Positions 31,120 to 49,969 of a DNA stretch of 64,000 bases are shown here, piece by piece (positions within the stretch are counted from its first letter, which is position 1; each line of letters begins with the position of its first letter). Made by a program: the position numbers and the translations under genes. The notes beneath the pieces were generated by a model. It had not been told where the DNA came from, did not search any database, and was given only the letters and a program-made list of their open reading frames with translations. This DNA comes from a virus: positions 39,994-103,993 of the IMG/VR virus record IMGVR_UViG_3300045988_151684. One strand, written 5' to 3'.

Positions 31120-34100
31120 ATCTTTTTCAAACCCCTCGGCGCCTTGCGTTTTTTCATATTACCAAAGAAACGATGCCGTCCCTTTATTTTTGCGCCAGCT
31201 GATTCACGCAGGAACTTTCTTGCTTCATTGAGTGACATATCCGTATTCTTATGTATCTGGCTAGTCATTCTAGCAAAATCACGGTCCCCAACTACGACGT
31301 TGTTGTATTCCTCATCATATTCAAAGCCCTGTGCTCTAATAACATATTCAGAATCTGGATTTTCCTTTGCATAACCATTAGCAAGTTTAGCAGCCTCTTT
31401 TAAACTTCTGCCACTGCCACGAGTTACAAGTATTTCTTCTCCATCTTCATTAGTATATTTTTGATAAACCATGAATTTATGAAAGAAATGCGGTACATAG
31501 CCAGTTAATTTAGTTAAAGGCTTGGGCCGTTCTGTATAATCAACCCGCCATAAAGTAGTACCTAAATCATCCGTCACGGGTTCAAAATCTATAACGCAAA
31601 CATCCTTATCTGCCTTTAATTTACTTAAGGCCTCAGGCGATACCATCTCGCCCGTATGTTCATAAATTTTAGCGCCGCGATATGTTACCAGTATTTTGCC
31701 ATTGCCTTTATTAATTATACTAAGAATATCGCTGTCCTTAAGGAAATGTGCCTTTTTGAAATCATCCAGCTGGCTTCTATGAAGAATCTTATTGCGCTCT
31801 ATCACCTGCATCCGAGCATCATTTATCAGCTTATAGGCACTGCCAAGACGCAGCCGAACCAGCTTATAGGCACGAATTGCATTATCGGAAAGTCCCATTT
31901 CCTTCAAATCCTTAACTTTGTATTCCTTGCCTTCCATATCACCTTGCAGCAGCGCCTGTGATACATCGTCCAAATCCTTCTTATCTTTGGTATACTGGTT
32001 AAACCGTTTCATAGCCTCGCCATAATGCGCCCTGAGTTTTTCCTGCTCATCGTATGCCTTGCGGGCTAAATTATAGAAATACTTGACAGCATTATTCTTC
32101 TTTGAAACCTGTCTTACCGTCTTAACCCACATATCGAGCATATTCAAGTTGTCAATATCACGCTCCTTTTTCTTGCGAATTTCAACGTTCTTTTCGGTGG
32201 CAATTTTACCCAGCTCGCTCATTGACCTTTTAATGCGGTTCAGCGAACCAGCCGGTTCCGTCTCCGTCTGCATTTCACTGATGGAGTATTTTTGCGTACT
32301 AGAAAAGCCGTCCTTGTCAGAACGGCTTACTGATAATTTGTTGTTGTCGTATTCATAATCGTGAATTGCCTTAACATCGTTTAGATATAATACTGATTGA
32401 ACCTCGTAGCTTACATTTTTCTCGGGTTGTTGATTACGTGCATTAAGCTCTCGTACTCCTCCTGTATAGCCTTTCTCAACCTCGACTTCACTTCTTCTAT
32501 CGGCATTGTCGGGTGTTCTTTTATCATATCTGGCAGGAGTTCCTCCATCTTTAATGGCTCTATTTTTGACGTTGTTTTGTCGGTTGTCTGATACATAACG
32601 CTCAAACTCCTCTCCTAATCGGTTAAAACGGCGTGAGTATTCATACGCTTCTTTTGGAAAACCATTCATATCGAAGTTGAATTTTGACCGCAATTCACGA
32701 ACTATCTTAGTTCCTAAAAACGCTTGGTCTAACTCATCGTCCGTCATGTCAGGTTTTAGCTTGCCTGCTAATTCCTGCTTCATCTGCTTAATGTCATTAT
32801 CGGTCACTTTTAGGGCATTGTCAAGCTCTCTTTCCCATACTTTTCCAGATTCTATATCCTTAAAAATACGGTTTACTTCCTCAGTCTTGGCAATGATGGA
32901 ACGCAGCTTATCAACCATTTCACGGAATTTTTTCCATAGCTTGCCAAACTTGAATGAATTACCGTTAGGGTCTTTAGTAACTCCCTTATTTCTAGCTAGG
33001 AACCAGTCACGGTATCTGTCAGCCGCATACTCAATAACGTCCTTGCCAGCTTTCCTAGCGTCCTCTTTATACGCCTTGATGATTGCAGATTTTTCTTTAT
33101 CTGTGAGCACCATATCCCATACCGCATGAAATACTTCATGGTATACGGAACCTTCATCGCCATTTAATGCTAACTGTATTACTGCCTTACTGCCAACCGT
33201 ATACTCTTTGCCGTTGACCTTTATCTTTACGCCAGCTTCTAACCCGTGAGCCTTCCTTGCTTTGTCAGCGTCTCCATTATCAACATTGAGTTCATCAGCA
33301 ATTTGTATTTCCACTTCTGCTTTATTGAACATAGTGAAATAAAGTGATGAGCCATCATCACGAATATTTTTGGCAGTCGGCAATGCTTCAGCTATTTCCG
33401 TGCGTAACCGCCCCATAGCCTGCGCTTTTGCCTGTTCGCTAATCTGCTCTTTTACATTATCTGCTGGGCTGATACTGTAATTGCTTTCGGCTAACAATGC
33501 GTTAGCTTCTTTGACAAATTCATTGCGGTCATTTTCATTTTCAAAGATAAATGAATTGTTAGCATACTTGCTATAGTGACCGTTGTGCTCTTTAGCCAGG
33601 TTACTGATTGAACGGTATTTATCGCTTAAATATTCGGTTGGTCTTGCCGTTGAATAAAGTTTGTCAACGTTTGGACGGGTATCTTCATGCGTGCCAAGCG
33701 TGAAATACTGTTCAGATTCAGTGTTTTCAGCTGGTTTAGATTCCGTTGTCGGTACTTTAGCATTAGGGTTATTGGCTTTTTCTGCCAAGTATTTATTGGC
33801 AGTACGCTCAAATTTATTGCGCAATGATTCAGTCGCAAAACCATAACCGCCAAACTTTACATTCCTTCTTCCTTGGTAGTCAAATGCTATTGCATATAAC
33901 CTATCGTCGTTCATCAGCTTTACATCATCGACTAAAGCCATATAGCTGTTATTAATGCTTTTTTTATTAACAGTATTGGTGAAATGATTTTTTATATCGG
34001 CGCCAATACGCTCAGGCATGGTCATATTTTTAATACGGCTGAAAAGGTCTTTGATATTCTCTATACCTCTAAGGTCTACTTCATTTCCACCTTGTGCCTG

Positions 34101-37100
34101 TTTCATATCCTCGTCAGTAAGGTATTTATCAATGACTAATATCTTTGTAGCTACGCTTGTTCCAGCACGCTTAAACGTGCATTGTGGAAGTCTTATGGTA
34201 TTAATGAGTAAGGCATGTTTTGCTTCATTGTTTCCGTACCATTCATCAAACCGCTTATTAAATGCAGGACCATCAGGGACAATTGCTATTACTCGCCCGC
34301 CATCATAAAGATGTTCAAAGGCTTTTGCCAAGTGTTCCATAGCGGTCTTGCCACCTTTACCGTAAGGAGGATTCATAGCAATACCATCAAACTTATTGGC
34401 TTTGGCGAACTGCTCAAAGGTCGTAGTTTCTACTCTTGAAGTAGTACCGCCTTTTAACCGCATTTTAGCAAGTGTAGCCAGCTGTTCGCTTGGCTCAATA
34501 ATAGTATTCCTTGTCGTAGCACTAAAGTAACGGGATATTGCGCCATGACCTGCGGACGGCTCCAATGCTTTGTTGCCATTCTTCAAGCCTAACCATTCTA
34601 CCATCTTAAAGCCTACTGGTTCAGGTGTCGGGTAGTAGTCTACACCTTCACTTGATTTATTACGGCTGTTCTTTTTCGCATTGGTGAAATAATCCGATAC
34701 GGCTTCATCAAATTGGCTAACGCCACTCATTGCTTTGCCATCACGGGCTTTACCGCCTGTACCTTCGGTCTTGCTGTTTGGCAGATAACGTTTCCATGTA
34801 TCACCGTCTATTGATTCCATAAAGCCGTTTACGATAGCGTCTCTAAGGTTGCGTGCTTCATAGCCCATAGAAAGATTTTCAGCGGTTGAAGAACGTCCCG
34901 CAATCGTATCAGCAAAAGCCTGTCTTTCAAAATTCATGCCAGTATTCAGATAGCGGATAATAGCATTAGTTACTACGCCAGTACGATAGATTCGCCCTTC
35001 ACATTGGATTAAGTCCGTTGGTCTTGTTGCCAGCCCCAAGTCTATTAATACCCGCTGGTGTTTTCCTGTCCTGTCGTGCAGGGATATACCTTCTTTAGCA
35101 GACGCCCGCTGACAAAGAAGAACTCTTAAATCATCCTCATCGTCATTAAATTTGTCAACACTATCCTGTCTTAATGATTTTTTCACATCACCATTAAATA
35201 TGCCGACTGTCTTTCCAAGCTCCGACTGAAAACGTTCTATAGGTGACATCAGGTCTTTCATATCCAGCTTTAGCAGTTCAGGATTTTCAGCACAAAAATC
35301 CTCATACTGCTTGTGAGCCTTAGCCTGATCAGACGGGTCAAGCTCTGCAAAATCATCACTAATAAGCATAAATGGATTTGCAGCTTCATTCTTTTTGAAA
35401 TCATGGAACACTACTACCTGCTTGCCAGCTTTTAAATATTCCTTGATTATTGGGATTGCCGCTTTAGCCTTGACTGCTTCCAGCAGATAACGCCGTCCAT
35501 TCTTCTTTAGTTTTTCATCAACCATCTTGGCAATCAGACTGTATTTGTCTCTATCGCCTTTTTCATCGTTGCCATGCAGAATGTCAAGTCCTCTATCAAT
35601 CTGCTTGCCTACGCCACCATCAACTAGGATATAGCCACGCTCATAATCGGGCTTAACTTCTAATTTACGGCTGGAAACAGCGCCAATGCTTTTCAGCCAT
35701 TCATTAAATTTTATTTCCATAATGTCTTGGTTAACTTCTGCGTCAGGCTTATTCAGCTTGTTATTGCGCATACGATAACCAAAATGGTCAATCATAAACT
35801 GTTCTTGACCATCGGTATCATTGTAGTAGCCATGTTTTTCTTTGGCAGGATAATCAAACAAATACCCCTCAGCATATTCTATATTTTTGATGTAGGCAAA
35901 TGGCGTAGCTGACAGGAACAGCACTTTATGGCGGTCATTAGCTCCCTTGGCGTCCTCTGCCTGCATAGCTTCATACTCTGCCTTTAGCTTATGGCGTATT
36001 CTTTCATTTTTAACATGCAGGTCTGCCAGCTGCTGTCTATCACTAGCCGTAAAATCAGATGCTCCGGCTCTGCTGTTCAATGACCTTTCCTGCATTACAT
36101 TATCATAATTTTTAGCTTCGTAATAATCGTTAAAGCCTCTATTATGATAGGTCATGGCACGAACTTTGTTAAGTGCATTAGTATTATTTGCCTGTTCTCC
36201 CTGCATTAGTTTATGAGATTCATCAGTTACGATTAAATCCCAGTCACGTTCTAAAAGGGCGTTGTTTTCACCTACATTTTGATATGAAGTGATAACAATG
36301 CCCTCGCCTTTATCCTTGGTGCTTTTCAGTTTGCTAATATCCAAGCCAAAGAAACCTTTACCCGCATTAATCCAGTCATTCTGTGTTTTATCCTGTGGCG
36401 CAATGATAAGAATATTCTTTTTGCCACGCTGTACAAAACGCTTGATAACGCCTAAGCCTGTAAAGGTTTTGCCTGTTCCTGTACCGTTGGTAAACATCAT
36501 ACCTTTATACGGTTTACCGTTTTTATCGGTGCTGAACAAACGGTTATCAGCTTTTACAACATCATCAACCTGTCCTTTCATCAGGAACGGCATACTAGCT
36601 TCTATTTGCTTTTTACTGCCAGTTTTAAAATTCTTCTTATCGACTTTAGCACCATTTATTGCGCCACGTTTACTGCTTTCATTGACTGGTCGGTTTTCAG
36701 CAGATTTAATACTTTCTGCGCTTCGTCCATCGTCAACCGGCGGTCTGTCGAAACTGTCTCTAATGCTTCTTGATAGGTGTTCAGCTCCGGTGCTATCATT
36801 TCCAGCTGACTGTTTGGTTTCTTCGCTTTGTACTCGGCTATTGCCAGTCTTTCCGCTAGTATCGGTGCTACGTCCGTGAACGCCGCCGCTACGTTGTGAC
36901 CGTACTTCTTTTCCAGACGATTGTACACTCTGTCCTCGCCCTGTTCGGGATTCTCCATCTTCATGTACTGACCCCACTGCGTCTTGATTGTCCCCTGCGC
37001 TATTTCGTTCAGCAGGTTTGTTGGTGCTGTCATAAAGCTCACTGTCCGTTACCTCCTTAGGATTGTTAATTACATTATCTGCGCCAATAAAGCCAAGTTT

Positions 37101-40100
37101 GAGTAATGGTTCAAAATCCTTAGCATTATCTTCACCATATTTTTTAGCAAACTCATTGCGAATATCTTCAAAACCTGCTTTGGGATTCTTTTCCATGACA
37201 CTGCCAACATAGTTAAATGCAGGTATCATTTGAGATTCATCAACCTTGCCGTCAGCAGATTCGAGCATTGACCATACAGGGTGCAGCCATCCACGTATAT
37301 CATCACCAAGAGTATCAATCATGGTTTTAGCAAATTCGGTAAAGCCTTTTGCGCCACGTGCTACATACAGTCTGCCTAACTTAAATGCTGGTGCAAGAAT
37401 GTCGGGGTCAAATACCGGCAGGGAATTTAATCTGTTGCGGGATTTTTCAAGTGCCTGTTTTAACTCTGCTACCAATTTTGTTTCGGCTTCTTCTGAAATA
37501 TCAACGCCAGCAAATTTTTTAGGGTCAATATCCTTCGGCTTATTACCATCAGATTCATCTTTTGATTCTGCTTTAGCTGGTTTTTCCTCAGCCTTTTTCT
37601 TTACAGGTCGAATACCTAAAGCCTTTTCAAGCTCTTTTTCGGCTTCCTCCTGTGTTGAGAAAATCCTGTGTTTCTTTTCTTCTTTTGGCTTTTCATCTTT
37701 TACCACGGGTTCGGATTGAACGGTTTCAGTCCCCTGTGTATGCTCGCTAGATACTTCTCCGCCGTTTCCTTCGGCAACTGTTTCATTACCATCAGTTCCA
37801 GCTCGTTCGGTTCCCTTTTTCTTAGCTTTACTATTGCTAGGCTTTGCAGACGTATTACTATCTTGTTCCTCCTCATGTATTCTTTCCAACAAGTGCTTCC
37901 TTATAAGCACACTATCTGCTAACACACCAGCTCTACTGTACGGATATAAGTCTGGGTTGAATACATTATCGTCTGTATCTTCTATTTCCTTCTCTAACTT
38001 GGCTAATCTCTCTATTGCTTCTTCATAAGTGATACTTTTTGCCCGATAAGCCTTGATAATCTTGCTTCCTTTTTGGTTAAAACCTTCTCTTATTTCCTCT
38101 TTCTCTTTGTATGAATAGGTTCTGTGCTCATTTTCATTTGTAGCTTTTTCGTTGCCTTCCTCAGCTGGTTCAGCTCCTGCCTTTTTTTCCTGTTCTTCGG
38201 CAAGCTCCTTAGCATAATCAGGTTCGCTCGTATCGGTATCAATTTCTTTTGATTCACCATAGAAATCTTTGACAAAACGGGCTTTATCATCAGAAGTTTC
38301 AAAGTCAAGATTATATACAGGTTTACCATTTTCCAAGTGTCCACGATAGCTTTCAATGTTATAGCCACGGTCGATATAATCCTTTATGTCAGATTCATAG
38401 ATACCGCTAACTCCTTTTAGAACAGTATCTTCTTTAGCTGATTTTTCTGCTTTAACTTCCTGTTTATCCTGCTCAGTAACGTTTTCAGCTGCTTCATTCT
38501 TGGCAATAGCTGGTGTTGCTTCCTCAGCTGGTTTAATTTCCTGCTCTGCTTCATCGTTGGTTTCAGCATTAGCAAGTTTCTTCTCAGCATTGACTATAGC
38601 CTTTGGCACGCCATGTTCTAGGTCATTGCGCAAATTATCATTAACAGAAATATTCTTTGCTTTCAGCTCATTTAAAAGCTCCTTGCCTAGTTCAATGCGA
38701 TCAGCCCGTGACATTTTCTTGACTTCGCTTAACCGTTTTTTATAGTCAAACCTGCTTGGAACATTGCCATACTGACTGTTTCTTATTTGCTCTGCTTCCT
38801 TATGGAACCCCATTGCGTCCGCTTCATTTGCCATTGCACCTATATCACTCTTGGCTTTTGCTTGACGGAATACAGGCGAATCGTTAAGCCGTGCCATTGG
38901 GTCATTGGTATTTACGGTTGGTGCTTTACGTTTTGGCGTGTCAGGAATAACAATATCAGGAGTTTCAGCAGGTGCGCCATTCGGAACAATAATCCCTGCA
39001 TTAGGCGTAGCAGGATTAATTGCAAGCCCAGCTTTCTGCATACGTGCGTCTATTGCTTGACGGTTGGCATTAGCCTGTTGCTGGTTATTGTTTAAATCCT
39101 GCTGTATGGTGCTGTCTAAAACATTACCGTCTATTGGCTGTCCATTCATAGCTGACTGCATAATAGCACTAGCCGTTGTGGGCAGATTTTGCTGTGTGGC
39201 CTGTGCAGCAGCATATTGCGGGTTATTATTTGCTATGCTGGCTAACTCTTCAAGATTTGCTATTGAAATATGCTGCTGATTATTTTTTATATTGCCAGCC
39301 AGTCCCTGACCATCCGGCAGTGCGGGGAAAGCATTTGGCACATCAAGCTGGATGCCATTCATGATAGCATTTTGAATGTTGCCAGCTGAGGCATTAACTC
39401 CCTGCGTCAGCAGATTGACCATAGTATTGTTCCAGCCATTACTGCGGGCAACTAAAGCAGCCTCAGCAATTTTTCCCTGTGATGCCAGTTTAGTGATATC
39501 ATCTACTGTCTGAGCAAATCTGTTGCCATAATTAGTTGAAACTCTTGTCTGTGCTGGTGCCTGCGGATTAATATTGTCAATTTTCGGTGTGGCCGGCGCT
39601 CTCCTTGGTGATGGGGCTTTAGCTGCCATCACGGTCTTCATCATAGCATTAGCAGTTTCCTGCGGATGCATCTTAAATATTGCGCCAATATCACCACCAT
39701 CAATTGCATTTTGCATAGCAGCTGCATGGGCTGCGTCCTCATTTACATCATCACTTACTGGCATATTCATCAACTGAGTAGCCATTTCCATTACTGACTG
39801 CTGCTGCTCCGGCGTCACCTCATTATTGCTAATAAGTGCCTGCGCTGCTTCCATATTCGCCTTTTCCTGCTCTGGTGTCAGGTCATATTGAGATAAATTG
39901 AATCCGGGAACAGTTATATTATAACTGCCACCACTGCCATTTAAAGCTTCACCATGGTCACTGAAATGTAAATGACCGCCGGTAGCATTAGCCGAAGGAT
40001 TACTATATTCGTCTAAACCATATAATCCATATTCCTTAGCCTTATCTATTAACCAGTTACGCGCATCCGCATTACCCTCAAGAAAATCATCGGCCGTATC

Positions 40101-41870
40101 AAAAGCCTGTGCCGAATCATGCCAGCTTTCACCACCGCCATTGCGAGCCATCGACGTTATATAAAAGTGCCGTCCATACTGGTTATAATAGTCACGGTCT
40201 AACAGTCTTAATTTCTGCTCAGTCAAATCAGTTAGATTAGGATTAGAAACTTCACCGCTTATAGTATAGTCTGCTGTCTGTGGAATATCTAAAGCTGGTG
40301 ACTGCGCTTTTTCATCAGCAAAATGCCCCATTGCACTATTTACATAGCCAGCTATGGATGGACCATTGCCCTGTGGCGCATCCCAAGGTCTGCCATTTTG
40401 GTCAGTAGCTTCTCCCTCAACCCAGCGCTGAGCATTGTTTGGACCGGAATACCATGCAACTAATGCCCCTTCTGGACCATACTCATCAAAATACTGTCCC
40501 ATTTTAAAACGTCCGACTTGACGGTACGCATCATCATCATCCATGCTTGCACCACCAAGACCAGCTTCTTTTGACCATGCATCCCAATTTTCCGGCTGAA
40601 TCTGATAAACACCACGCGCACCCGTAGATGATACCGCATCAGGATCACCGCCGCTTTCCTGCATTTCAATAGCGTTGAAAAATGCTTCTTTGTCGCTGCC
40701 GCCGTTATTAGCATTGCCACGTTGTACCGTAACTGTGCTTTCCGGAACATCAGCAATCTCTGTTTTATTGCCAGCAGTTTCTTCCATGCCATTAAATGGA
40801 TTATTAGGATTACTTTTAGCAGCTTCATTATTCATTCTATTAATTCTAGCTTTATAATCCCTATAAGCAGTATGGCCTGCGCCAAACAGACCTAATGGCA
40901 GGCTGCCCATAAAGGCAGCTCGTCCTGCCTGCTGTTCGTCCTCTGTTGGATTAAAGAACGTACCATACGGCTTGCCACTCCATTTATTTTGTGCCTGCTG
41001 TTGTGTCATTTCCTGAGCATACTCCGAGGCTGCCGAGCCCGGAATATTAACGCCATAGCCGGCAATCTTGCCTGCTCTGCCACCCCGTTTGAATATCGGC
41101 TTAAAGCCTTTACCTTCAAGGATAGGTCCCATAATACCCTGAGTAAGCATATCCATTGGCAGTTCTTCTTGTATCATGCTATTCATACGACGAGCAATTT
41201 CATCATCAGAAAGTCCCTCGTCTTTTAAATCAGCATACATATCGCCGGCATTAGTTGCTGCTTCCAGTGGTCCCGTACCTAAGGCCCATTTTGCTGCTGA
41301 AGCTCCTGCCTGCTGTCCTGCCTTTGACATAATAGCCTTGCCTATCTGCTTAGCTCCAGCACGGGCAGCCATTGAACCAATACCACGTGCAGCAAGTGCG
41401 CCAGCACCGCCAAATGGTGCTGCGGCACTAGCAGCCGCAAACGGAATAGCCGAACCTGCCATCTGACTAAAGTCAGCCAGCAGACCTCGTTTGTCTGTCA
41501 AATAATCAGCACTGGTTAATCTGTCAATTATACTCATATCCTGATATTTATCAAGCGTGCCAGATTCAGCAAAATTCTTAGCTGCTTTATCATTAAGATA
41601 TTCACCATTATTTATAAATGAATCGCCCCATTTACCGAGCGTACCCTCATCTGAATTGCGGATTGAATCAACATAAGAACTTTCCCGCCCTGCCTCGTCA
41701 AAACGTTTCAGTTGTGCTCCTATATAATCAAGCCCGCCACCAATTACGCTTTCGGCTCCGCCTGCTAAGTTATCCATTATGGTTGAAAACAATCCCTTTT
41801 CTTTTGGTGCAGCAGCTGATACGCCAGCTACTACAGGATTGCTTATTGCATGTTCTTTTAAAAATGACAT
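31071..41870 (-). CDS. giant polyvalent virion protein (3,599 aa) with lytic transglycosylase, M15 peptidase, SNF2-type helicase, N6-adenine DNA methyltransferase (DarB-like) and HExxH zincin-like modules
   Basis: SLT motif EMQESGG...GARGVYQIQ at about aa 400-430. M15 motifs SWHDSAQAFD and GGHLHFSD at about aa 580-640. Helicase Walker A GTGKT at about aa 1797, DESH at about aa 1883 and QCEGRIYRTG at about aa 2290. MTase motifs EPSAGHG and NPPY at about aa 2437-2503. HEVFH at about aa 2911. Confidence 0.8.
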   Translation of the reverse strand: MSFLKEHAISNPVVAGVSAAAPKEKGLFSTIMDNLAGGAESVIGGGLDYIGAQLKRFDEAGRESSYVDSIRNSDEGTLGKWGDSFINNGEYLNDKAAKNFAESGTLDKYQDMSIIDRLTSADYLTDKRGLLADFSQMAGSAIPFAAASAAAPFGGAGALAARGIGSMAARAGAKQIGKAIMSKAGQQAGASAAKWALGTGPLEAATNAGDMYADLKDEGLSDDEIARRMNSMIQEELPMDMLTQGIMGPILEGKGFKPIFKRGGRAGKIAGYGVNIPGSAASEYAQEMTQQQAQNKWSGKPYGTFFNPTEDEQQAGRAAFMGSLPLGLFGAGHTAYRDYKARINRMNNEAAKSNPNNPFNGMEETAGNKTEIADVPESTVTVQRGNANNGGSDKEAFFNAIEMQESGGDPDAVSSTGARGVYQIQPENWDAWSKEAGLGGASMDDDDAYRQVGRFKMGQYFDEYGPEGALVAWYSGPNNAQRWVEGEATDQNGRPWDAPQGNGPSIAGYVNSAMGHFADEKAQSPALDIPQTADYTISGEVSNPNLTDLTEQKLRLLDRDYYNQYGRHFYITSMARNGGGESWHDSAQAFDTADDFLEGNADARNWLIDKAKEYGLYGLDEYSNPSANATGGHLHFSDHGEALNGSGGSYNITVPGFNLSQYDLTPEQEKANMEAAQALISNNEVTPEQQQSVMEMATQLMNMPVSDDVNEDAAHAAAMQNAIDGGDIGAIFKMHPQETANAMMKTVMAAKAPSPRRAPATPKIDNINPQAPAQTRVSTNYGNRFAQTVDDITKLASQGKIAEAALVARSNGWNNTMVNLLTQGVNASAGNIQNAIMNGIQLDVPNAFPALPDGQGLAGNIKNNQQHISIANLEELASIANNNPQYAAAQATQQNLPTTASAIMQSAMNGQPIDGNVLDSTIQQDLNNNQQQANANRQAIDARMQKAGLAINPATPNAGIIVPNGAPAETPDIVIPDTPKRKAPTVNTNDPMARLNDSPVFRQAKAKSDIGAMANEADAMGFHKEAEQIRNSQYGNVPSRFDYKKRLSEVKKMSRADRIELGKELLNELKAKNISVNDNLRNDLEHGVPKAIVNAEKKLANAETNDEAEQEIKPAEEATPAIAKNEAAENVTEQDKQEVKAEKSAKEDTVLKGVSGIYESDIKDYIDRGYNIESYRGHLENGKPVYNLDFETSDDKARFVKDFYGESKEIDTDTSEPDYAKELAEEQEKKAGAEPAEEGNEKATNENEHRTYSYKEKEEIREGFNQKGSKIIKAYRAKSITYEEAIERLAKLEKEIEDTDDNVFNPDLYPYSRAGVLADSVLIRKHLLERIHEEEQDSNTSAKPSNSKAKKKGTERAGTDGNETVAEGNGGEVSSEHTQGTETVQSEPVVKDEKPKEEKKHRIFSTQEEAEKELEKALGIRPVKKKAEEKPAKAESKDESDGNKPKDIDPKKFAGVDISEEAETKLVAELKQALEKSRNRLNSLPVFDPDILAPAFKLGRLYVARGAKGFTEFAKTMIDTLGDDIRGWLHPVWSMLESADGKVDESQMIPAFNYVGSVMEKNPKAGFEDIRNEFAKKYGEDNAKDFEPLLKLGFIGADNVINNPKEVTDSELYDSTNKPAERNSAGDNQDAVGSVHEDGESRTGRGQSVQSSGKEVRSQRSGGVHGRSTDTSGKTGNSRVQSEETKQSAGNDSTGAEHLSRSIRDSFDRPPVDDGRSAESIKSAENRPVNESSKRGAINGAKVDKKNFKTGSKKQIEASMPFLMKGQVDDVVKADNRLFSTDKNGKPYKGMMFTNGTGTGKTFTGLGVIKRFVQRGKKNILIIAPQDKTQNDWINAGKGFFGLDISKLKSTKDKGEGIVITSYQNVGENNALLERDWDLIVTDESHKLMQGEQANNTNALNKVRAMTYHNRGFNDYYEAKNYDNVMQERSLNSRAGASDFTASDRQQLADLHVKNERIRHKLKAEYEAMQAEDAKGANDRHKVLFLSATPFAYIKNIEYAEGYLFDYPAKEKHGYYNDTDGQEQFMIDHFGYRMRNNKLNKPDAEVNQDIMEIKFNEWLKSIGAVSSRKLEVKPDYERGYILVDGGVGKQIDRGLDILHGNDEKGDRDKYSLIAKMVDEKLKKNGRRYLLEAVKAKAAIPIIKEYLKAGKQVVVFHDFKKNEAANPFMLISDDFAELDPSDQAKAHKQYEDFCAENPELLKLDMKDLMSPIERFQSELGKTVGIFNGDVKKSLRQDSVDKFNDDEDDLRVLLCQRASAKEGISLHDRTGKHQRVLIDLGLATRPTDLIQCEGRIYRTGVVTNAIIRYLNTGMNFERQAFADTIAGRSSTAENLSMGYEARNLRDAIVNGFMESIDGDTWKRYLPNSKTEGTGGKARDGKAMSGVSQFDEAVSDYFTNAKKNSRNKSSEGVDYYPTPEPVGFKMVEWLGLKNGNKALEPSAGHGAISRYFSATTRNTIIEPSEQLATLAKMRLKGGTTSRVETTTFEQFAKANKFDGIAMNPPYGKGGKTAMEHLAKAFEHLYDGGRVIAIVPDGPAFNKRFDEWYGNNEAKHALLINTIRLPQCTFKRAGTSVATKILVIDKYLTDEDMKQAQGGNEVDLRGIENIKDLFSRIKNMTMPERIGADIKNHFTNTVNKKSINNSYMALVDDVKLMNDDRLYAIAFDYQGRRNVKFGGYGFATESLRNKFERTANKYLAEKANNPNAKVPTTESKPAENTESEQYFTLGTHEDTRPNVDKLYSTARPTEYLSDKYRSISNLAKEHNGHYSKYANNSFIFENENDRNEFVKEANALLAESNYSISPADNVKEQISEQAKAQAMGRLRTEIAEALPTAKNIRDDGSSLYFTMFNKAEVEIQIADELNVDNGDADKARKAHGLEAGVKIKVNGKEYTVGSKAVIQLALNGDEGSVYHEVFHAVWDMVLTDKEKSAIIKAYKEDARKAGKDVIEYAADRYRDWFLARNKGVTKDPNGNSFKFGKLWKKFREMVDKLRSIIAKTEEVNRIFKDIESGKVWERELDNALKVTDNDIKQMKQELAGKLKPDMTDDELDQAFLGTKIVRELRSKFNFDMNGFPKEAYEYSRRFNRLGEEFERYVSDNRQNNVKNRAIKDGGTPARYDKRTPDNADRRSEVEVEKGYTGGVRELNARNQQPEKNVSYEVQSVLYLNDVKAIHDYEYDNNKLSVSRSDKDGFSSTQKYSISEMQTETEPAGSLNRIKRSMSELGKIATEKNVEIRKKKERDIDNLNMLDMWVKTVRQVSKKNNAVKYFYNLARKAYDEQEKLRAHYGEAMKRFNQYTKDKKDLDDVSQALLQGDMEGKEYKVKDLKEMGLSDNAIRAYKLVRLRLGSAYKLINDARMQVIERNKILHRSQLDDFKKAHFLKDSDILSIINKGNGKILVTYRGAKIYEHTGEMVSPEALSKLKADKDVCVIDFEPVTDDLGTTLWRVDYTERPKPLTKLTGYVPHFFHKFMVYQKYTNEDGEEILVTRGSGRSLKEAAKLANGYAKENPDSEYVIRAQGFEYDEEYNNVVVGDRDFARMTSQIHKNTDMSLNEARKFLRESAGAKIKGRHRFFGNMKKRKAPRGLKKMCRGCWSITSMHPHVM

Positions 41871-41891: not shown

Positions 41892-43682
41892 TTAATCACC
41901 ATATCGGTTTCTCATGTCTTGAATAATAGCAGGATCTATACGTGCCAAAAGCTCGTCATTGCCTGTTTTTATATCATCCCAATAAATTTTGGTATTTGGA
42001 TTTGCTGGATCCCGATTATATTCTCTTAAAAAATTCCCTAGATACTGCAATTCATTATCCTCCCAAGCATTATCATCTTCATCATGCCCAGGAATACCAA
42101 TAGCTTTTTCTTTAAACCCATTAAAATCTATATCGCCACTAAGATATTGCTGTATATACTGGTCATATTTGGCTTTATGACCTTCTTCCTTAGCTGTTGC
42201 TGCTGATGATTTAGCACCTCTTTGGTACTTTCCACTTGCTAAATCTTCGGCGTGCCATTTATCTCTTGCTTGTATATCCTCAGCCTTACGTTTATTTGCT
42301 GCCTGCTCTTTCATAACCGCCGTCTGATAACCAAAATTCTGACCGCGGGCCGTAAGATTCCCCTTCATTTTATCCGTTGGACTTATTGCTTTGTTGAATG
42401 TCTGCGTACTGCCAGCACCATAACCGCTCGGGTCATAATAAGAAACATACTTCTTATCACCTGTATCAGTTTCATGCATAGTGTAATTACGCTTTGTTTT
42501 ATCAAAAGCATTGATAATGTCTTTCGGATCAGCGCCGGATGCTACCAGCATAGCCAGCATACTTCCAGCTTGAGGATTGCTTGCCAGGCTTTCAATGAAT
42601 TTACCCTGTAGCATTTTCTTAGTCTTTTCTGCTTCCTGCTTATCCATCTTGGCCAACGCCGCCTCAACCTGATTTTGTGGCAACCCCTGGTTAATCAAAG
42701 CACGGCGCAAATTATCCCGATAATCCGGTGAAGCTTTTTCGCTAGCAATATCTTTCATAGCCAGTTGCTTGGCTGTTGCGTCTAACACAGTGTTGTAATC
42801 TGCACCCTTGCCATAGACATCGTATATATCCTGCATGGTAATAGTATCTGGATTACTATAGGCTTGTTTTGCAGCATCCTGAACATCCTTAACACTGAAC
42901 GTATAAGGATTAGTATTGGCAGCATTATTTCCCGCCGGAAGCTGATTTTGTGCTGCTCCGTTTTGTCTTATTGGCTGTGCTCCAGCTAATTCATTAGCTA
43001 CTTCCTGTAATGTCTGTGGCGATGCATTGCCATTTCTGTACAGCTCACTTATTTCTGCTTTGGTAGGCGCATAGTTAAACGGCTTTAGTCCTAATGCTGC
43101 CTGAGCTATTTCTTCTTTGGTGGGTGGCTTCTTATATGATATATCCAGCTCATTTTTTGGCATTTGATAATTGCCAAATCTGTAATTTGGTGACATTTCC
43201 GCCTCAGCAGCAGCCTTGGCAGCAGCTAAACTGTTGACATTCCCCCCTACTTTTGACATATCTATATGCTTTCTGTCACCAATCTTACGGAACTCATCGG
43301 CCATAGTATGTGCCGTATTTTGTATATCACGGAATTTTTTTACATCATCGGAATCTTCACCGTAACCATTATTAAGTAAATATTGTGCATCATTCTGTGC
43401 CTGCCACCAGCGACGTTTAGCATTTAATAAACCTTGCTGTGGTGTAAGACCTACATAATCACCCGCATTAGACTGATTCTTTAATGCCTCTGCTGCTTCT
43501 GCTCTATGCTGATCAGCATACTTATCAAGCATATCCTGCTGATACCTCTTGATAGCGTCACCAGCTTTATCTATGCCACGCTGATTATAATTTTGTGCCC
43601 AGGCATTACCTAGTGCTGCCCCTAAAGCACTGCCAAGCTCCGGTGAAAAAACATCATCTCTTATATCACTCCACCAGCCCAT
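41892..43682 (-). CDS. internal virion / ejection protein (hypothetical)
   Basis: 596-aa ORF overlapping the giant ORF start region. Confidence 0.35.
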   Translation of the reverse strand: MGWWSDIRDDVFSPELGSALGAALGNAWAQNYNQRGIDKAGDAIKRYQQDMLDKYADQHRAEAAEALKNQSNAGDYVGLTPQQGLLNAKRRWWQAQNDAQYLLNNGYGEDSDDVKKFRDIQNTAHTMADEFRKIGDRKHIDMSKVGGNVNSLAAAKAAAEAEMSPNYRFGNYQMPKNELDISYKKPPTKEEIAQAALGLKPFNYAPTKAEISELYRNGNASPQTLQEVANELAGAQPIRQNGAAQNQLPAGNNAANTNPYTFSVKDVQDAAKQAYSNPDTITMQDIYDVYGKGADYNTVLDATAKQLAMKDIASEKASPDYRDNLRRALINQGLPQNQVEAALAKMDKQEAEKTKKMLQGKFIESLASNPQAGSMLAMLVASGADPKDIINAFDKTKRNYTMHETDTGDKKYVSYYDPSGYGAGSTQTFNKAISPTDKMKGNLTARGQNFGYQTAVMKEQAANKRKAEDIQARDKWHAEDLASGKYQRGAKSSAATAKEEGHKAKYDQYIQQYLSGDIDFNGFKEKAIGIPGHDEDDNAWEDNELQYLGNFLREYNRDPANPNTKIYWDDIKTGNDELLARIDPAIIQDMRNRYGD

Positions 43683-45190
43683 TAATCATCACCCCATATC
43701 TCGCTGCTGCCACCATTGGCAATGAAGCCATCCGCAATGTAGTTGTTTGCGCCGTCAACCTGCAAATCATAGACCCTGCGTTCACCGCTATAGACAACAC
43801 TTTGAACTTTGCCAACATTTTTAAGCTCTGTACCAATCGTAAGGTAACTTAGCATTACATACTCGCCATCAGGCTTCATAAAGCTCTGTGTAAGTGTGGT
43901 ACTCGTATGACCGTCTTTTGCAATGACACAATAAACGTCATTGTATCTAGGTTCCATAGTCTTTACTACCTTAGCAGTAGTGCCATCAGCCGTCATGACT
44001 TCATCACCTGCATGAACATGCTTAATATCCCGCTTACTGCCATCAGCCATGTCAATCATAGTTCCCTCCGGGAAACAAGCCCAGCCCATAGCAGCACCAC
44101 CTACAGCTGACCCTAGCAAGTTGCCAAAGAAACTGCCGCCTGATGTATGCTGATTTTGTGTTGATGTACTAGTTCCTTTTCCGGCAGCTGCGGCCAACGC
44201 TCCAGTATTGGCACCATTGAGACCAAGCGAAGTCTGCCACAAATTCATTGCTGGCGTCTGCGCTGCTTCCTGCGCTGTTGCCGCTGCCGTAATAGGTGAT
44301 GTAGCTGAATCAATAAGATTGCCATACAAACCTTGGTTAGCACTGTTATTGCCCTGCGTATTGCTTAGCTGCTGCTGCGTTATGGCTCCTGCCTGGCCAA
44401 GAGCACCACTATTAACACCGTACTGCCGGCTTATAATATCACCTAAGCTGTTCGTTGCATTGTTAGTATTTTGATTTTGCTGCTGGGCAAGATTGGCTGC
44501 CTGATTAATATTGTTTTGATACTGTGATGCCACACTGTCGCTGGCATTTTTCTCAATGTCATTAAGTGCACTCGATGTTACGGACGAATTTAGTACGCCT
44601 CGATTGCCTAAATTGTTAATCGCTTTGCCAACCGTATTATTAACCGCTGAGTTGATACTTTTTTCCATATTCTGCTGATATGCAGAAGGCAAATTGCCAT
44701 TTTCTAAGCTGCTAAGCGTACTATTTGCTTTATTTGCCGAATCAACATAGCTTCCCGCAAGATTTCCATACTGATTTGATGTACTATTAGCCAGTTTATA
44801 ATTCTGATTTACTAAATCACCAAGCGTGCCGTTAGCGTTGTTAGTTGCTGAATTATTACTGCCAATAAGCCCTGCCAGCCCATTTGTCGCATTGCCTATC
44901 TGATTTTGTGCATTTTTGTTCATGGCGTTATAGTCGACCTGAACCGTACCTAGAGAATCTCTAAGCAAATTCATAGCATAATCATTAAGCGTTATGGCAT
45001 TTGGCATAACAGCATCAATATATTTGCCCTGCTGCTTCATCAGATACTTTTCTTCCTCTGATGGAGTATAGGTACTGGTATTAGTAACGGTTGTCGAATG
45101 TCCTTTGAAGTAGCAACGATGGAAATATTTTCTGTATACTTCGCTGTGTAAATTATCTTGCGGTCTATCAAACCACATCTGCTGAAACAT
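43682..45190 (-). CDS. N/Q-rich protein with a C-terminal Hint (hedgehog/intein-like) autoprocessing domain
   Basis: Hint block A CFPEGTMIDMADGSKRDIKHVHAGDEVMTADG and block B-like TLTQSFMKPDGEYVML, after about 300 aa of N/Q/S/G-rich low complexity. Confidence 0.5.
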   Translation of the reverse strand: MFQQMWFDRPQDNLHSEVYRKYFHRCYFKGHSTTVTNTSTYTPSEEEKYLMKQQGKYIDAVMPNAITLNDYAMNLLRDSLGTVQVDYNAMNKNAQNQIGNATNGLAGLIGSNNSATNNANGTLGDLVNQNYKLANSTSNQYGNLAGSYVDSANKANSTLSSLENGNLPSAYQQNMEKSINSAVNNTVGKAINNLGNRGVLNSSVTSSALNDIEKNASDSVASQYQNNINQAANLAQQQNQNTNNATNSLGDIISRQYGVNSGALGQAGAITQQQLSNTQGNNSANQGLYGNLIDSATSPITAAATAQEAAQTPAMNLWQTSLGLNGANTGALAAAAGKGTSTSTQNQHTSGGSFFGNLLGSAVGGAAMGWACFPEGTMIDMADGSKRDIKHVHAGDEVMTADGTTAKVVKTMEPRYNDVYCVIAKDGHTSTTLTQSFMKPDGEYVMLSYLTIGTELKNVGKVQSVVYSGERRVYDLQVDGANNYIADGFIANGGSSEIWGDD

Positions 45191-45202: not shown

Positions 45203-45622
45203 TTATATGTCCCATGTAATATAAAAGGCCTGCCTGCCATCATCCTTATATTTGAATGCTGGCGAAGCATAGCCCATCTTCTTTGTAGTTTTATTTATTG
45301 CCTGATATCTAGTCGCACCATCTTTCAGTAACTCTTTTTTTACTACTTTATAGCCAAACAATCTGAAATATGCTGGTGGATTACAGCGGATATTTATAGT
45401 ACCACCGTGATGTATACCTGCTTTTTCCGCCGCCTTATCTACGGCATTTTTCCAATAGCGTGCATCACCGCCAAGCTGTCCAATAAATGCCATGCGTTTT
45501 GTCATAAGAACCTCACAGAATCCTTTATCTTCTTTAAAGAAAAGCGCATACCTATTGTCACGCTGAAACTTATCATGCAGATTCTTTCTGTTGTAAAAAT
45601 CTATCCATTCATCCAGTGTCAT
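45203..45622 (-). CDS. hypothetical protein
   Basis: 139-aa ORF in an operon. Confidence 0.3.
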   Translation of the reverse strand: MTLDEWIDFYNRKNLHDKFQRDNRYALFFKEDKGFCEVLMTKRMAFIGQLGGDARYWKNAVDKAAEKAGIHHGGTINIRCNPPAYFRLFGYKVVKKELLKDGATRYQAINKTTKKMGYASPAFKYKDDGRQAFYITWDI

Positions 45623-46977
45623 AAGTCAGCCACCTCAACAATAACATGCTTCGGGGAGAACGGCGTGCTGCTAGATAGTTCAAGCGTCATTTTCGATGTC
45701 GTATGATTGCACCGTATCTTGCGCCGGTCATTTGCCGGCATATCGACTTCGATGTTATCAAGCTTTAAGTGCAGCTTGCCAGCGCTTGGAGCGTCAGCGT
45801 CTGTATCGACTGCTCTTGTGATTATCTTTTCTGTGCTGACTGTATCCTTAAATTTCATACGGAAAAGTATTGGCTTCCCATTATCATCACCAATAGTATC
45901 AGATAATTCGTAAAGGCCACTGCCACTTGCCACGATAACCTTATCCAATGTTTCCACAATATCAGTTACAGGAATAGCAAACTGCAAAGTAGTAGCGCTG
46001 CCCAAAGCATAGTTAAAAGCTATCATATAGTGCCAGTCTGCTGTCGGTCTAATAAGCAGCAGCTTCCTGCGCCTGAGATTAAAAAGTCTTGGCTCATACT
46101 GACCTTGTGTGACAAGCGCCGTGAACTTTTGTCCGATGTCACCCGTAGCAATATTCCCGTAATCCATAGTAGTAGCAAGCGTTCTAAGCCCGCCTCTGGT
46201 CACGAAAATCACGTCATTTCCGACCGGCATAGCACACTGACGACCGACTATATCCGTCTCAGTAGCTATACGATATACCGCCCATGAGCTTACATCAGCG
46301 TCGCCGGTCAACTGGTAAACCATGCCATTTGACTTGAAAATCATCAAATCCGTTGCCAACGGTGCTATTGCTATCACATCACCACTGTCACCATAGCCAA
46401 TATCTATCCACTGACCGCTAGAAGCGTCATTATCATCAGTAGTCCATGTTTCGCCGTCACCTGTAGCCGAATAAGTTATGCGGTCACTGCCGGTCATACA
46501 TACGCATAGCCGTGCAAAGCGCTGAAAGACTACATCGCATTTCGGCGATGATAGCACTGTCTTTATGCTCTCTTTAGTCGAATAATCATAGTATTGAAGA
46601 TAGTCGCCACTTGCTATCCACATTCTGTCTTGAAATTTTGCGCAGCTCGGACGCTTAGTACCCGTCAGACTGCCGATTTTCTCGGGTGCTTTATCTATAG
46701 TGACTACTCGATATATCCCGCCGTCTATGGTAAAAAGCAAAAAAGTGTTGGTATCGACATCATAAAAAAGCGATAGTATCTCTGTCTCAAGCGTAGAAAA
46801 CGGCTTAGACAAGCCACCACGGGGCGACAAAGACCGCTGAAATCCGACAAAAAGCAAATTTTGGCACTCTTGAAGCTCATTCTGCGCTATCATATCGCCG
46901 TCAGACATGACATTTATACCGCCTGTGAAGTCATTAAAAGCTATCTGAGTAGCTTGGTGCTTGCTTGTGCGGCGCAT
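45619..46977 (-). CDS. virion structural protein (hypothetical; possibly tail tube / nozzle-like)
   Basis: 452-aa ORF. Confidence 0.35.
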   Translation of the reverse strand: MRRTSKHQATQIAFNDFTGGINVMSDGDMIAQNELQECQNLLFVGFQRSLSPRGGLSKPFSTLETEILSLFYDVDTNTFLLFTIDGGIYRVVTIDKAPEKIGSLTGTKRPSCAKFQDRMWIASGDYLQYYDYSTKESIKTVLSSPKCDVVFQRFARLCVCMTGSDRITYSATGDGETWTTDDNDASSGQWIDIGYGDSGDVIAIAPLATDLMIFKSNGMVYQLTGDADVSSWAVYRIATETDIVGRQCAMPVGNDVIFVTRGGLRTLATTMDYGNIATGDIGQKFTALVTQGQYEPRLFNLRRRKLLLIRPTADWHYMIAFNYALGSATTLQFAIPVTDIVETLDKVIVASGSGLYELSDTIGDDNGKPILFRMKFKDTVSTEKIITRAVDTDADAPSAGKLHLKLDNIEVDMPANDRRKIRCNHTTSKMTLELSSSTPFSPKHVIVEVADL

Positions 46978-47735: not shown

Positions 47736-47936
47736 ATGGGAAAAACCAAAGCGCAAATTCGTGCTACAGAAAAATTCAACAAGAACAACTATGAACGGCT
47801 TAGTTGCTCAATCCCTATTGGGGAGCGTGAAGTTATAAAAGGTTTTGCGCAAGAACATGGTTTGTCTCTTGCACAATATATACGACAAGCCTGCTACGAA
47901 AAAGCTGGTAAGAAAGCACCAGCGATGAAAAAATAA
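47736..47936 (+). CDS. ribbon-helix-helix (CopG/Arc-like) DNA-binding protein
   Basis: 66 aa. MGKTKAQIRATEKFNKNNYERLSCSIP fits an RHH fold. Confidence 0.4.
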   Translation: MGKTKAQIRATEKFNKNNYERLSCSIPIGEREVIKGFAQEHGLSLAQYIRQACYEKAGKKAPAMKK

Positions 47937-47984
47937 AGTGTGGTTTCCCTCCCTTCACGGGGAGGGATTAAGGAGGTAATTAAC

Positions 47985-48245
47985 ATGAAAAAGCAGGAAT
48001 TTGAAGTACGGGAAATCCACACTGATGGGCATGTGTCCTACTTCTGTTTTTTAGCCAAATCAATTAGGGGCGCTAAGATTTTGGCTAAAAAATACAGAGG
48101 TAGCCAAAATTCTGACTTGCAAGTCATGTGGCGTGACGTGCAAGTCGCAAGTATGTACTCCAATAAGTGGCAAGGGGGGCGTGATGATGAAATTGGTACT
48201 GAGGCGTATATAAAAGAGCGCCTTGGTAATGGCTTGCCTTGGTAA
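47985..48245 (+). CDS. hypothetical protein (86 aa from MKKQEFEV)
   Basis: RBS AGGAGG 8 nt before an internal ATG. The track ORF begins at 47940. Confidence 0.35.
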   Translation: MKKQEFEVREIHTDGHVSYFCFLAKSIRGAKILAKKYRGSQNSDLQVMWRDVQVASMYSNKWQGGRDDEIGTEAYIKERLGNGLPW

Positions 48246-49285: not shown

Positions 49286-49296
49286 TGACGTATACT
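49268..49296 (+). promoter_or_regulatory. Sigma70 promoter TTGACT-17-TATACT. The predicted start site coincides with the ATG at 49303, so the mRNA would be leaderless.
   Basis: Read directly. Confidence 0.45.
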
Positions 49297-49302
49297 AACG
49301 AT

Positions 49303-49677: not shown

Positions 49678-49969
49678 AATCTCACCTGCTGTTTCAGCTA
49701 TTCTTAATGGTCTAAACGAAGCCGTGCTAGACGCTCAAGGTTCTTCCGTTACAGGTTTACGCAAGACTGTCATTCAAACAGTTAAGCCTAAAGAAATTCG
49801 AGAAGAACTCAATATGTCTCAACAAGAATTTTCAAAAGCCTACGGCATCCCTCTTGCTACTCTGCGCAATTGGGAGCAAGGCAGGCGCAAGTTAGATACA
49901 ACCGCAATAGCGTACCTAAAAGCTATTATGCGCTTTCCAAAAGAAGTTATGGTTGCACAAACAAATTAA
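49667..49969 (+). CDS. HTH antitoxin partner
   Basis: HTH MSQQEFSKAYGIPLATLRNWEQGRR. RBS AAGGAGGA. Overlaps the toxin by 11 nt. Confidence 0.55.
   Translation: MKNEISPAVSAILNGLNEAVLDAQGSSVTGLRKTVIQTVKPKEIREELNMSQQEFSKAYGIPLATLRNWEQGRRKLDTTAIAYLKAIMRFPKEVMVAQTN

Follow-up and report, generated by a model that had tools for sequence, protein, structure and literature searches.

The window analyzed here is a 64,000-nucleotide stretch of viral DNA (IMG/VR virus record IMGVR_UViG_3300045988_151684, positions 39,994 to 103,993), and a gene on its minus strand (43682..45190) encodes a 502-residue protein that ends in a Hint autoprocessing domain. As read from the list of open reading frames (ORFs) and the translation, this precursor consists of a helical N-terminal domain (N-domain), a Gly-zipper linker, the Hint domain, and a short tail. 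The product is probably, with some reservation, a precursor whose terminal Hint domain removes itself, leaving an ejection-type protein by which a temperate podovirus of diderm Firmicutes (Negativicutes) delivers DNA from the virion. The Hint fold, its conservation pattern, the absence of a C-extein, the ends of Hint-less relatives just upstream of the predicted junction, and the gene order are direct observations; the cleavage event, its timing, the location of the product in the virion, and the membrane role of its tail are what we infer.

The C-terminal domain has a complete Hint fold

The Hint domain spans residues 372–492 (43715..44077, minus strand) and holds blocks A, B, and F together with a G-like strand without His-Asn, as seen with Pfam, NCBIfam, a PDB profile search, an AlphaFold2 (AF2) model, and Foldseek. 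The match to PF05203 in Pfam reaches 38.1 bits against a cut-off of 32.1, and the NCBIfam model TIGR01443 (intein_Cterm) matches residues 473–490 at 20.8 against 15.6; the Pfam models Hint_2, Hint, Vint, and PT-HINT score under threshold on the 502-residue protein. When a profile built from 80 family members was searched against the PDB, matches of 1e-11 to 1e-8 over residues 372–486/492 were obtained to 8w20 (1.1e-11), the C. thermocellum bacterial intein-like (BIL) domain 2lwy (1.9e-10), the gp41-1 intein, and Tetrahymena BIL2. In the AF2 model, residues 371–495 have a predicted local distance difference test (pLDDT) score of ~95. By Foldseek, this model matches Tetrahymena BIL2 at 1.3e-9, and BIL domains and mini-inteins as a group at E ~1e-9. 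The gp41-1 intein superposes with a template-modeling (TM) score of 0.88 and a root-mean-square deviation of 1.6 Å, and Hedgehog-C (1at0, E 2e-5), 6fre, and 6frg are matched as well. Residues 372–492 are a real and complete Hint fold, far beyond chance.

A preliminary description of this DNA had reported canonical Hint blocks in the last ~135 residues and had proposed a profile comparison among its checks. Both peptides that it quoted are located in the protein, CFPEGTMIDMADGSKRDIKHVHAGDEVMTADG at residues 372–403 and TLTQSFMKPDGEYVMLSYLTIGTEL at residues 432–456. The profile match was found, with PF05203 and TIGR01443 above cut-off and PT-HINT below, and the C-terminal Hint domain is genuine (~131 residues, with an invariant Cys). 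The word canonical does not hold: Gln replaces the block B His and Asn the block F His, Lys, Gln, Met, or Asn stands in for the penultimate His, and the C-terminal Asn is absent. The presence of Hint in the family is not new to databases, because UniProt and BFVD already label two members 'Hint' (Phage sp. ctKtV17 and Caudovirales sp. ctUL28).

Active-site residues point to an N-terminal reaction only

Residue conservation was counted over 179 unique family Hint sequences (~30–99 % identity), with the definitions of Hint, BIL, and block residues, including the Asp at position F:4 and the His-Asn of type A BILs, taken from PMC4031507. The block A nucleophile, Cys372 (codon tgt, 44075..44077, minus strand), is present in 179/179 and, from the codon and its conservation, places the predicted scissile junction at Ala371|Cys372; the adjoining Phe373 (+1 after Cys) is present in 178/179. 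In block B (T432-L-T-Q435, 43886..43897, minus strand), Thr432 at B:7 is kept in 176 sequences. Asp475 at block F position 4 (VYDL, 43766..43768, minus strand), which aligns with the block F Asp of the gp41-1 intein, is kept in 174, with Glu in 3. The usual histidines are replaced. Position B:10 is Gln435 in 176 sequences and Glu in 2, so that the TxxH of the Hint superfamily is lacking; the counterpart of Gln435 in BIL 2lwy is the His of TTFDHP, and in 8w20 it is a His as well. Asn482 (Asn in 160/179) aligns with the block F histidine of the 'NHNF/NHLF' motif, and position 492, which aligns with the penultimate histidine, is Lys in 100, Gln in 37, Met in 22, and Asn in 10. The block-G-like strand GF[VI]A is kept in the domain and the HN is gone.

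Past the domain lies only the tail GGSSEIWGDD (residues 493–502 with the stop, 43682..43714, minus strand), which is recognized by its conservation and leaves no C-extein. Gly493 (161/179) and Gly494 (163/179) occupy the positions of the intein terminal Asn and the +1 nucleophile. Trp499 is found in 172 of the 179 sequences, the remaining 7 being gaps, and in 118/118 of a 120-homologue MAFFT set. Among the 120 best full-length hits, all Hint-bearing members end ≤12 residues past the domain with a GG-x(3-4)-W tail. The domain departs from class 1 inteins (no His-Asn end, Gly494 at +1, only 10 residues after Hint) and from type A BILs (no C-terminal His-Asn). Its PT-HINT (PF07591) score is 15.8 bits against a cut-off of 27.7, with nothing downstream, and of the Hedgehog/Hog arrangement it has the cargo–Hint order but nothing after the Hint beyond the GGxxxxW tail. 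As judged from these residues, only the N-terminal acyl shift would be possible, and splicing, Asn cyclization, and downstream toxin release are excluded because Gly-Gly stands at the Asn and +1 sites and the tail is ≤12 residues.

It is extremely improbable that the protein is a true intein or a PT-HINT protein that splices or releases a downstream toxin, and both were rejected on sequence grounds (no C-extein, Gly-Gly). Intein-type Pfam models do match, PT-HINT is a precomputed assignment for a few homologues, and the PDB entry for 8w20, the best sequence match there, names a 1368-residue 'Intein C-terminal splicing domain-containing protein'. Set against this are the short tails, the Gly-Gly pair, the low PT-HINT score, the absence of a homing endonuclease, and a next gene that starts at a TAATG overlap, with no recoding-joined downstream ORF seen.

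The reaction that is left has been followed in a comparable protein. In the Ssp DnaB intein bearing H73A/N154A/S+1A, N–S shift and N-terminal cleavage persist when the −1 residue is bulky (Leu, His, or Phe), whereas neither occurs with Gly at −1 (PMC6333167). Over 147 distinct junctions of the family described here, the −1 residue is Phe in 73, Trp in 29, Ala in 22, Asn in 9, and Gly in 7; in the window protein it is Ala371, preceded by Trp370 at −2. The Hint domain and the N-domain diverge in step (mean identity of 48.9 and 46.6 %, respectively, over 208 pairs). Because its divergence tracks that of the N-domain, the Hint domain is under purifying selection like the rest of the protein and is not decaying.

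The same residues bear on whether the domain reacts at all. A catalytically silent Hint, serving as an attached C-terminal knob or plug with Cys372 kept for structure or for a disulfide, is improbable. Such a role would suit the changes at B:10 (Gln), at the block F His (Asn), and at the penultimate His (Lys, Gln, Met, or Asn), as well as a semi-conserved second Cys at position 424 (78/118), and some podovirus tail needles have C-terminal knobs. However, near-invariant Cys1, Phe+1, Thr B:7, and Asp F:4 across the 179 sequences form the signature of an active N-terminal junction, and a His-less, Asn-less, and +1-less intein with a bulky −1 residue cleaves at its N-terminal junction in experiments (PMC6333167). 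In addition, the repeated clean loss of the whole domain after the Gly-zipper tail, described below, fits a removable part better.

In a Veillonellaceae/Dialister branch (L011 2910–4526; P0190, P0192, P0195, L023, L024), the Hint domain is not terminal. A charged tail of 40–60 residues follows it, with a weak match to HeH/Rho_N (SAP-like, DNA-binding), and the junction (...ANGILAEG...) is again without Asn or nucleophile. To judge from this match, a released Hint fragment may bind packaged DNA in these phages.

Hint-less relatives end just upstream of the predicted junction

Related genes were gathered from species genomes, IMG/VR contigs, and a full hidden Markov model (HMM) scan of 1.84 billion representatives. 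The 502-residue protein has 504 homologues at E≤1e-3, and the HMM scan gave 362 clusters (50 % identity) at E≤1e-3; a search with the Hint domain alone, limited by the word index, returned 4 proteins. By tblastn, the 502-residue protein, its 596-residue neighbor, and the window DNA had no match in 50,697 GenBank phage records, so isolate relatives were not usable for comparison. A Hint domain is encoded in the same ORF at 81/112 related loci and is present in 58 of the top 150 cluster representatives. Among the other 31 loci are some whose ORF runs off the end of the locus, distant relatives from Synergistales, and three with divergent Hints (L023, L024, L090), which the family HMM recovered later.

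Intact Hint-less ORFs terminate within the conserved glycine-rich tail at a true stop codon, which in one example directly follows ...GGGGFFSGLLGGLF. These stops (...GLLGGLF) fall, in the closest relatives, 8–9 residues upstream of the position of the Cys in the window protein. The closest Hint-less relatives (P0114, P0115, P0119) align colinearly with the entire N-domain (53–55 % identity), minimal Hint-less members have 240–250 residues, and no Hint is encoded within ±10 kb of intact Hint-less ORFs. Cleavage at the commonest Hint junction, ...GxGLF|CFP, would leave a C-terminal end of the same kind as that of the Hint-less genes. The two forms are also interleaved: Hint-less L010 has Hint-bearing P0105 as its nearest relative (64 %), and for P0155 and P0156, too, all nearest relatives are Hint-bearing. 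Since Hint-less and Hint-bearing forms are mutual nearest relatives in several places, the module has been lost or gained repeatedly without replacement, and a self-removing appendage is favored because the module can vanish at that point without replacement.

These relatives also bear on the outcome of the reaction, for which the preliminary description had offered autoproteolytic release or covalent attachment. Self-release is favored by the Hint-less ends just upstream of the junction and by the interleaved forms, which together make the strongest case for it. Of release and attachment, hydrolytic release is favored because Hint-less relatives have a plain C-terminus. For attachment, the Cys372 thioester would be captured by a lipid head-group amine, a Lys of a virion or host protein, or a cell-wall amine, and the Gly-zipper end would become covalently anchored; this outcome is distinctly improbable. 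Its chemistry up to the thioester is identical to that of hydrolytic release, and it has parallels in Hedgehog, with cholesterol, and in Tetrahymena BIL-ubiquitin-like proteins, with Lys residues; among solved structures, BIL2 domains of the Tetrahymena BUBL locus match most closely. The invariant Gly-Gly and Trp499 tail after the Hint has no assigned role, and the Hint is strongly retained in most lineages, a pattern that asks for some advantage over and above removal. However, the C-terminus of the interleaved Hint-less relatives is a plain carboxylate in almost the same position, so an adduct is not essential. No sterol-recognition-like or adaptor region follows the Hint, the tail being ≤12 residues among the 120 best hits, and no partner gene tracks Hint presence: the 139-residue partner described below occurs with both forms. 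A more specific version, in which the thioester on a membrane-active ejection protein is caught by a lipid or protein amine and the His-free Hint has its rate set by the −1 residue, has a slimmer chance still.

One of the 4 proteins from the Hint-only search, the apparently stand-alone Hint ORF P0121, was considered as a designed split and rejected, as it arises from a frameshift that interrupts this gene in two assemblies (L114, L115). These two independent assemblies represent a ~95 % identical phage (L114 2904–4411 and L115 2489–3996), and the frameshift, near the NLWQTS motif, yields a 357-residue ORF with an out-of-frame end and a 136-residue ORF that begins MGWAS|CFPEG and holds the whole Hint. 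A 3-nt insertion adds a Ser ahead of the Cys. The break reflects either a genuine pseudogene variant or an assembly error common to both.

The N-domain and its Gly-zipper tail

The N-domain begins with a conserved region (residues 1–87; 44930..45190, minus strand), recognized from alignments and the N-termini of representatives. In many relatives the N-terminus reads M..FDLQLF'GG, which matches the L27/Prp cleavage motif xx(D/N)LQ(F/L)F' (PMC9405229). The N-terminal end of the window protein is 25 residues longer and has ...HRCYF'KG at the aligned position, which departs from the Prp motif.

Residues 88–345 (44156..44929, minus strand) are poorly charged (19 charged of 258) and rich in Asn, Ala, Ser, Gly, and Gln (18.6, 14.7, 11.2, 9.7, and 9.3 %, respectively), and composition, AF2, and periodicity point to long amphipathic helices. 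Four long helices are predicted, with pLDDT of 55–73 over the ranges 87–163, 169–197, and 204–323, and hydrophobic residues recur with a periodicity of 3.6 residues (z = 15.5, residues 87–323). The region is 53–55 % identical to relatives over its full length; its equivalent varies in length among relatives and has internal repeats, seen as multiple matched stretches. As modeled, residues 88–345 are amphipathic helices and not disordered filler. Thus, the biased composition behind the earlier label of an N/Q-rich low-complexity region is real, but the region is conserved, predicted to be helical, and periodic, and so is not disordered.

The region closes with the conserved motif AQEAAQxPAxNLWxxSLGLNG...ALAAAAGKGT, in which a Walker A motif (AAAAGKGT) was rejected by eye since the K is followed by G and not by S/T. 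Then come a Thr/Ser/Gln-rich stretch, poly-Gly, and a GxxxG glycine-zipper hydrophobic segment. The poly-Gly and zipper part comprises residues 346–371 (GGSFFGNLLGSAVGGAAMGWA; 44078..44155, minus strand) and is delineated by hydropathy and by the GGGGFFxGLLGG that is conserved in the tail before the Hint. The zipper holds the most hydrophobic 19-mer of the protein, with a Kyte-Doolittle (KD) value of 1.15 at 354–373.

The N-domain has no relative in Pfam, PHROG, NCBIfam, or the PDB. The family is also found as the C-terminal part of fused proteins of 900–1860 residues, and a Pfam scan of the long fused relatives L012, L019, L017, and L018 gave only low-complexity and coiled-coil noise.

At some loci, one or two extra small proteins of 160–195 residues follow the N-domain gene (L010 10689–11183, L014 10766–11269, L001 11579–12163). 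They are Gln-rich, and at least the one of L010 ends in a Gly-rich hydrophobic tail, ...GLGRFIGGLLNKFLIPVKFGGGRK; the window phage is without them. Their make-up suggests a set of similarly built, putatively membrane-directed proteins.

Genomic context

The 15–64 kb part of the window belongs to a temperate phage, with an integrase, a helix-turn-helix repressor, a Rep protein, and ParA/ParB. Its minus-strand late operon begins with TerS, TerL, a T7-like portal, a scaffold-position protein, the major capsid protein (MCP), and fibre-like proteins, and continues with a 452-residue protein, a 139-residue protein, the Hint protein, proteins of 596, 3599, and 567 residues, a holin, and an endolysin. 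Neither a tube nor a sheath nor a tape measure was detected here. The hosts that genome records name are diderm bacteria (Selenomonas, Selenomonadaceae, Megasphaera, Veillonella, Dialister, Anaerovibrio, and Synergistales), and the family occurs in prophages of gut and rumen Negativicutes.

The 452-residue product (45619..46977, minus strand) is a podovirus tail hub/nozzle like the P22 gp10 'stabilization protein', as assigned with AF2 (pLDDT 87) and Foldseek. Its Foldseek matches include the Pa223 tail (1.6e-20, query TM score 0.81), the Pan3 'stabilization protein' 9vyg_M (5.8e-20), P22 gp10 (1e-18 to 1e-17), and the T7 gp12 nozzle (~1e-12). It carries the PHROG label 'head closure Hc3', and its one GenBank phage match by tblastn is Microbacterium phage Shocker (22 %). 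The hub accompanies the family at 100/112 loci. Immediately upstream of the Hint gene lies the 139-residue protein (45203..45622, minus strand), which is conserved by synteny: a homologue is found directly upstream of the family gene at 82/112 loci, with Hint or without. This protein has no Pfam, PHROG, or NCBIfam match and no similarity to P22 gp14 by BLASTP, and is likely a dedicated partner or chaperone.

The start codon of the Hint gene itself is ATG, preceded by a Shine-Dalgarno sequence (AAGGGGG) at a distance of 7 nt, and the stop codon of the gene overlaps with the next start as TAATG. The translationally coupled 596-residue protein encoded there (41892..43682, minus strand) is a candidate second ejection protein by position only; it has no Pfam, PHROG, NCBIfam, or PDB match, and a homologue lies downstream of the family gene in 20 loci. 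The following 3599-residue giant (31071..41870, minus strand) is a 'polyvalent' protein in which Pfam finds SLT lytic transglycosylase (393–487), ResIII/SNF2 helicase (~1788–2298), and methyltransferase-like (2430–2532) domains; T7 gp16 also carries SLT. A giant of the same kind, with Glucosaminidase, ddrB-ParB, and ResIII, lies downstream at L001. Polyvalent proteins have been proposed to be delivered with the DNA (PMC5512222).

In the P22 record, the hub gp10 is followed by the needle gp26, by gp14, and then by the ejection proteins gp7, gp20, and gp16, and gp7 is annotated as having its N-terminal 20 residues removed by host OpdA. The Hint gene takes a position of the ejection-protein type, after the hub in the late operon and near a large SLT-bearing protein. 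The gene is placed in a late structural operon, which upholds the earlier assignment of its predicted product to a virion module. The further statement that it is sandwiched among ejection proteins is half right: the upstream neighbors are a P22-gp10-like hub and the 139-residue protein, and the downstream genes are of ejection type only by position and by the SLT of the giant.

Gene order also lends itself to another assignment of the N-domain. The Hint could self-cleave as proposed, in the manner of tail-spike chaperone domains, from an external tail needle or fibre like P22 gp26, although we consider this unlikely. The gene is two genes past the gp10-like hub, near the place of gp26 in P22, minimal Hint-less members (240–250 residues) are close in size to gp26 (233 residues), and the protein has long regular helices. 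On the other hand, homology to gp26 is absent, and the periodicity is 3.6 and not the 3.5 of a coiled-coil heptad. The Prp-type N-terminal motif of the relatives is common to the scaffold-position protein and the MCP, the gene is coupled translationally to the downstream 596-residue and giant SLT proteins, and the family is also fused as the C-terminal part of the 900–1860-residue proteins.

Proposed mechanism

In the mechanism that we propose for an ejection-type precursor, the gene has the position of gp7 in P22 and the product would be ejection-protein-like. Its functional part would be the N-terminal ~371 residues, that is, amphipathic helices ending in a glycine-zipper tail, and the C-terminal 131 residues would perform the first Hint reaction alone. 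Cys372 would attack the Ala371–Cys372 peptide bond in an N–S acyl shift, and the thioester would then be resolved, most likely by hydrolysis, to give an N-domain with a free Gly-zipper C-terminus and a Hint fragment of ~14 kDa. In place of the usual histidines, catalysis would draw on Thr B:7, Asp F:4, and the amide sidechains of Gln B:10 and the block F Asn, and strain from the bulky residue just before the Cys would aid it. The Hint domain would probably be a removable cap: by masking a membrane-active tail it would render this harmless or soluble in the cell that produces it, or it would help incorporation into the particle.

Several observations weigh against this proposal. The block B His, normally essential for the N–S shift, is absent, as are the other two usual histidines, and the −1 Ala of the window protein is a weaker compensator in PMC6333167. 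The KD value of the tail is lower than the usual transmembrane threshold. A profile of the N-domain compared with P22 gp7, gp26, and gp20 gave no homology (hhalign probability <1 %), and because the N-domain is without homology to these proteins, PHROG, or Pfam, the label 'ejection protein' is one of gene order only. Finally, the proposal does not explain what advantage maintains the Hint if Hint-less forms are functional.

Other features of the window and its relatives

Two structural proteins of the late operon have N-termini that match the Prp motif: the scaffold-position protein (57225–58379, minus strand), which starts MEKKFNLQLF'AED, and the MCP (gene 55911–57167, minus strand), which starts MNLRFDLQRF'AGS at ~57152. 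The MCP start is listed as a GTG at 57167 and is probably an ATG a few codons downstream. The capsid and scaffold proteins of S. aureus phage 80alpha use the L27/Prp cleavage motif (PMC9405229).

The 3599-residue giant has long unassigned stretches between its domains, and the giants of relatives swap in Glucosaminidase and ddrB-ParB domains. In L034 and L036, contigs that are otherwise 99 % identical, the helicase part of the giant is only 25–26 % identical by tblastn, and this divergence suggests a putative modular replacement inside the giant gene. The 567-residue protein (29416–31119, minus strand) has a sub-threshold match to NF032893, 'PLxRFG domain-containing protein (tail-700)' (E 8e-20, 70.8 vs 100 bits). 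Between the fibre genes and the hub are two small plus-strand gene islands (47736–48245 and 49285–49969) that look like moron or toxin-antitoxin insertions; a RelB-type antitoxin gene lies at the equivalent position in L114/L115.

The composition of the window breaks near 14–15 kb. The 1–14 kb part has a GC content of 0.29–0.36 and is siphovirus-like, with its own large terminase (11333–13081, phrog_9) and a tape-measure gene (2753–5629); the podovirus part at 15–64 kb has a GC content of 0.40–0.47. The two parts are either two adjacent prophages or a composite sequence. No tRNA was found in the window, and neither part matches GenBank phages.

Significance

To our knowledge, phage Hint domains are known almost only as inteins in terminases, polymerases, and helicases, and we know of no ejection protein that carries one. 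The literature searched for Hint in ejection or internal virion proteins gave nothing relevant, only ordinary inteins in terminases, and a Hint in an ejection role is not mentioned in surveys of polyvalent proteins and jumbo phages. We found no description of a terminal Hint on an ejection-module protein, of its His-free site, or of Hint-bearing and Hint-less pairs. A terminal Hint, predicted to be of the cleavage-only kind, is stably and widely present in a family that appears to deliver DNA from the virion (362 clusters; 58/150 top representatives). If cleavage is true, it would add a maturation route for ejection-type proteins beside prohead proteases, host OpdA, and Prp. It would also offer a natural experiment in Hint chemistry, with a His-free active site over hundreds of sequences and an aromatic −1 residue, a combination of His-free site and bulky −1 residue that has so far been explored only by protein engineering. 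The domain of ~125 residues is a possible C-terminal self-cleaving tag. Sister proteins with and without the Hint exist, some of them in hosts that have been cultured (Hint-bearing in Selenomonas sp. AE3005, NZ_JMME01000020.1; Hint-less in Anaerovibrio slackiae WCA-693-APC-5D-A, NZ_VUNR01000013.1), so that the question is open to a direct test.

Comparison with known systems

By position, the closest systems are the podovirus ejection proteins, P22 gp7/gp20/gp16 and T7 gp14/gp15/gp16, which share the late-operon place after the hub and a helical series ending with a lytic transglycosylase. P22 gp7 is also proteolytically matured (by host OpdA, 20 residues at the N-terminus). Sequence similarity of the family to ejection proteins is not detectable, P22 gp7 and gp20 having been compared. 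In its logic, the proposed cleavage resembles that of the tail spike and fibre C-terminal intramolecular chaperone domains (Peptidase_S74; K1F endosialidase, T5 pb1), which self-cleave through a Ser-Lys dyad in a trimer-dependent manner: a C-terminal domain removes itself after an assembly job. The fold and chemistry are unrelated, and no Pfam match to a Peptidase_S74-type chaperone domain is found in the 502-residue protein.

By fold, the best structural and profile matches are the BIL domains (2lwy; Tetrahymena BIL2, 6y75/6tmm), and those that only cleave come closest. The family shares with them the Hint fold, an N-terminal Cys nucleophile, the lack of a +1 nucleophile, and, as predicted, cleavage in place of canonical splicing (PMC4031507). 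It differs in that type A BILs end in His-Asn, whereas the family has Lys, Gln, Met, or Asn followed by Gly, and in that BILs are normally internal with a C-terminal flank, whereas this Hint is terminal and has Gln for the block B His. Hedgehog/Hog proteins (1at0) have the same order of cargo and C-terminal Hint, the same Cys-Phe start, and a reaction at the N-terminal junction only, which leaves the released cargo with either a modified or a free C-terminus. In contrast to Hedgehog, the family has no sterol-recognition region, has TxxQ for TxxH and mostly Phe, Trp, or Ala in place of Gly at −1, and would act in a phage virion and not in a secreted signaling protein. The closest match in active-site configuration is the Ssp DnaB mini-intein H73A/N154A/S+1A (PMC6333167; 6fre, 6frg), which likewise lacks the block B His, the terminal Asn, and a +1 nucleophile and has Phe or another bulky residue at −1. 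That mutant is a laboratory construct with Ala at B:10, whereas the family is natural and has Gln invariantly at B:10 and Asn in place of the block F His.

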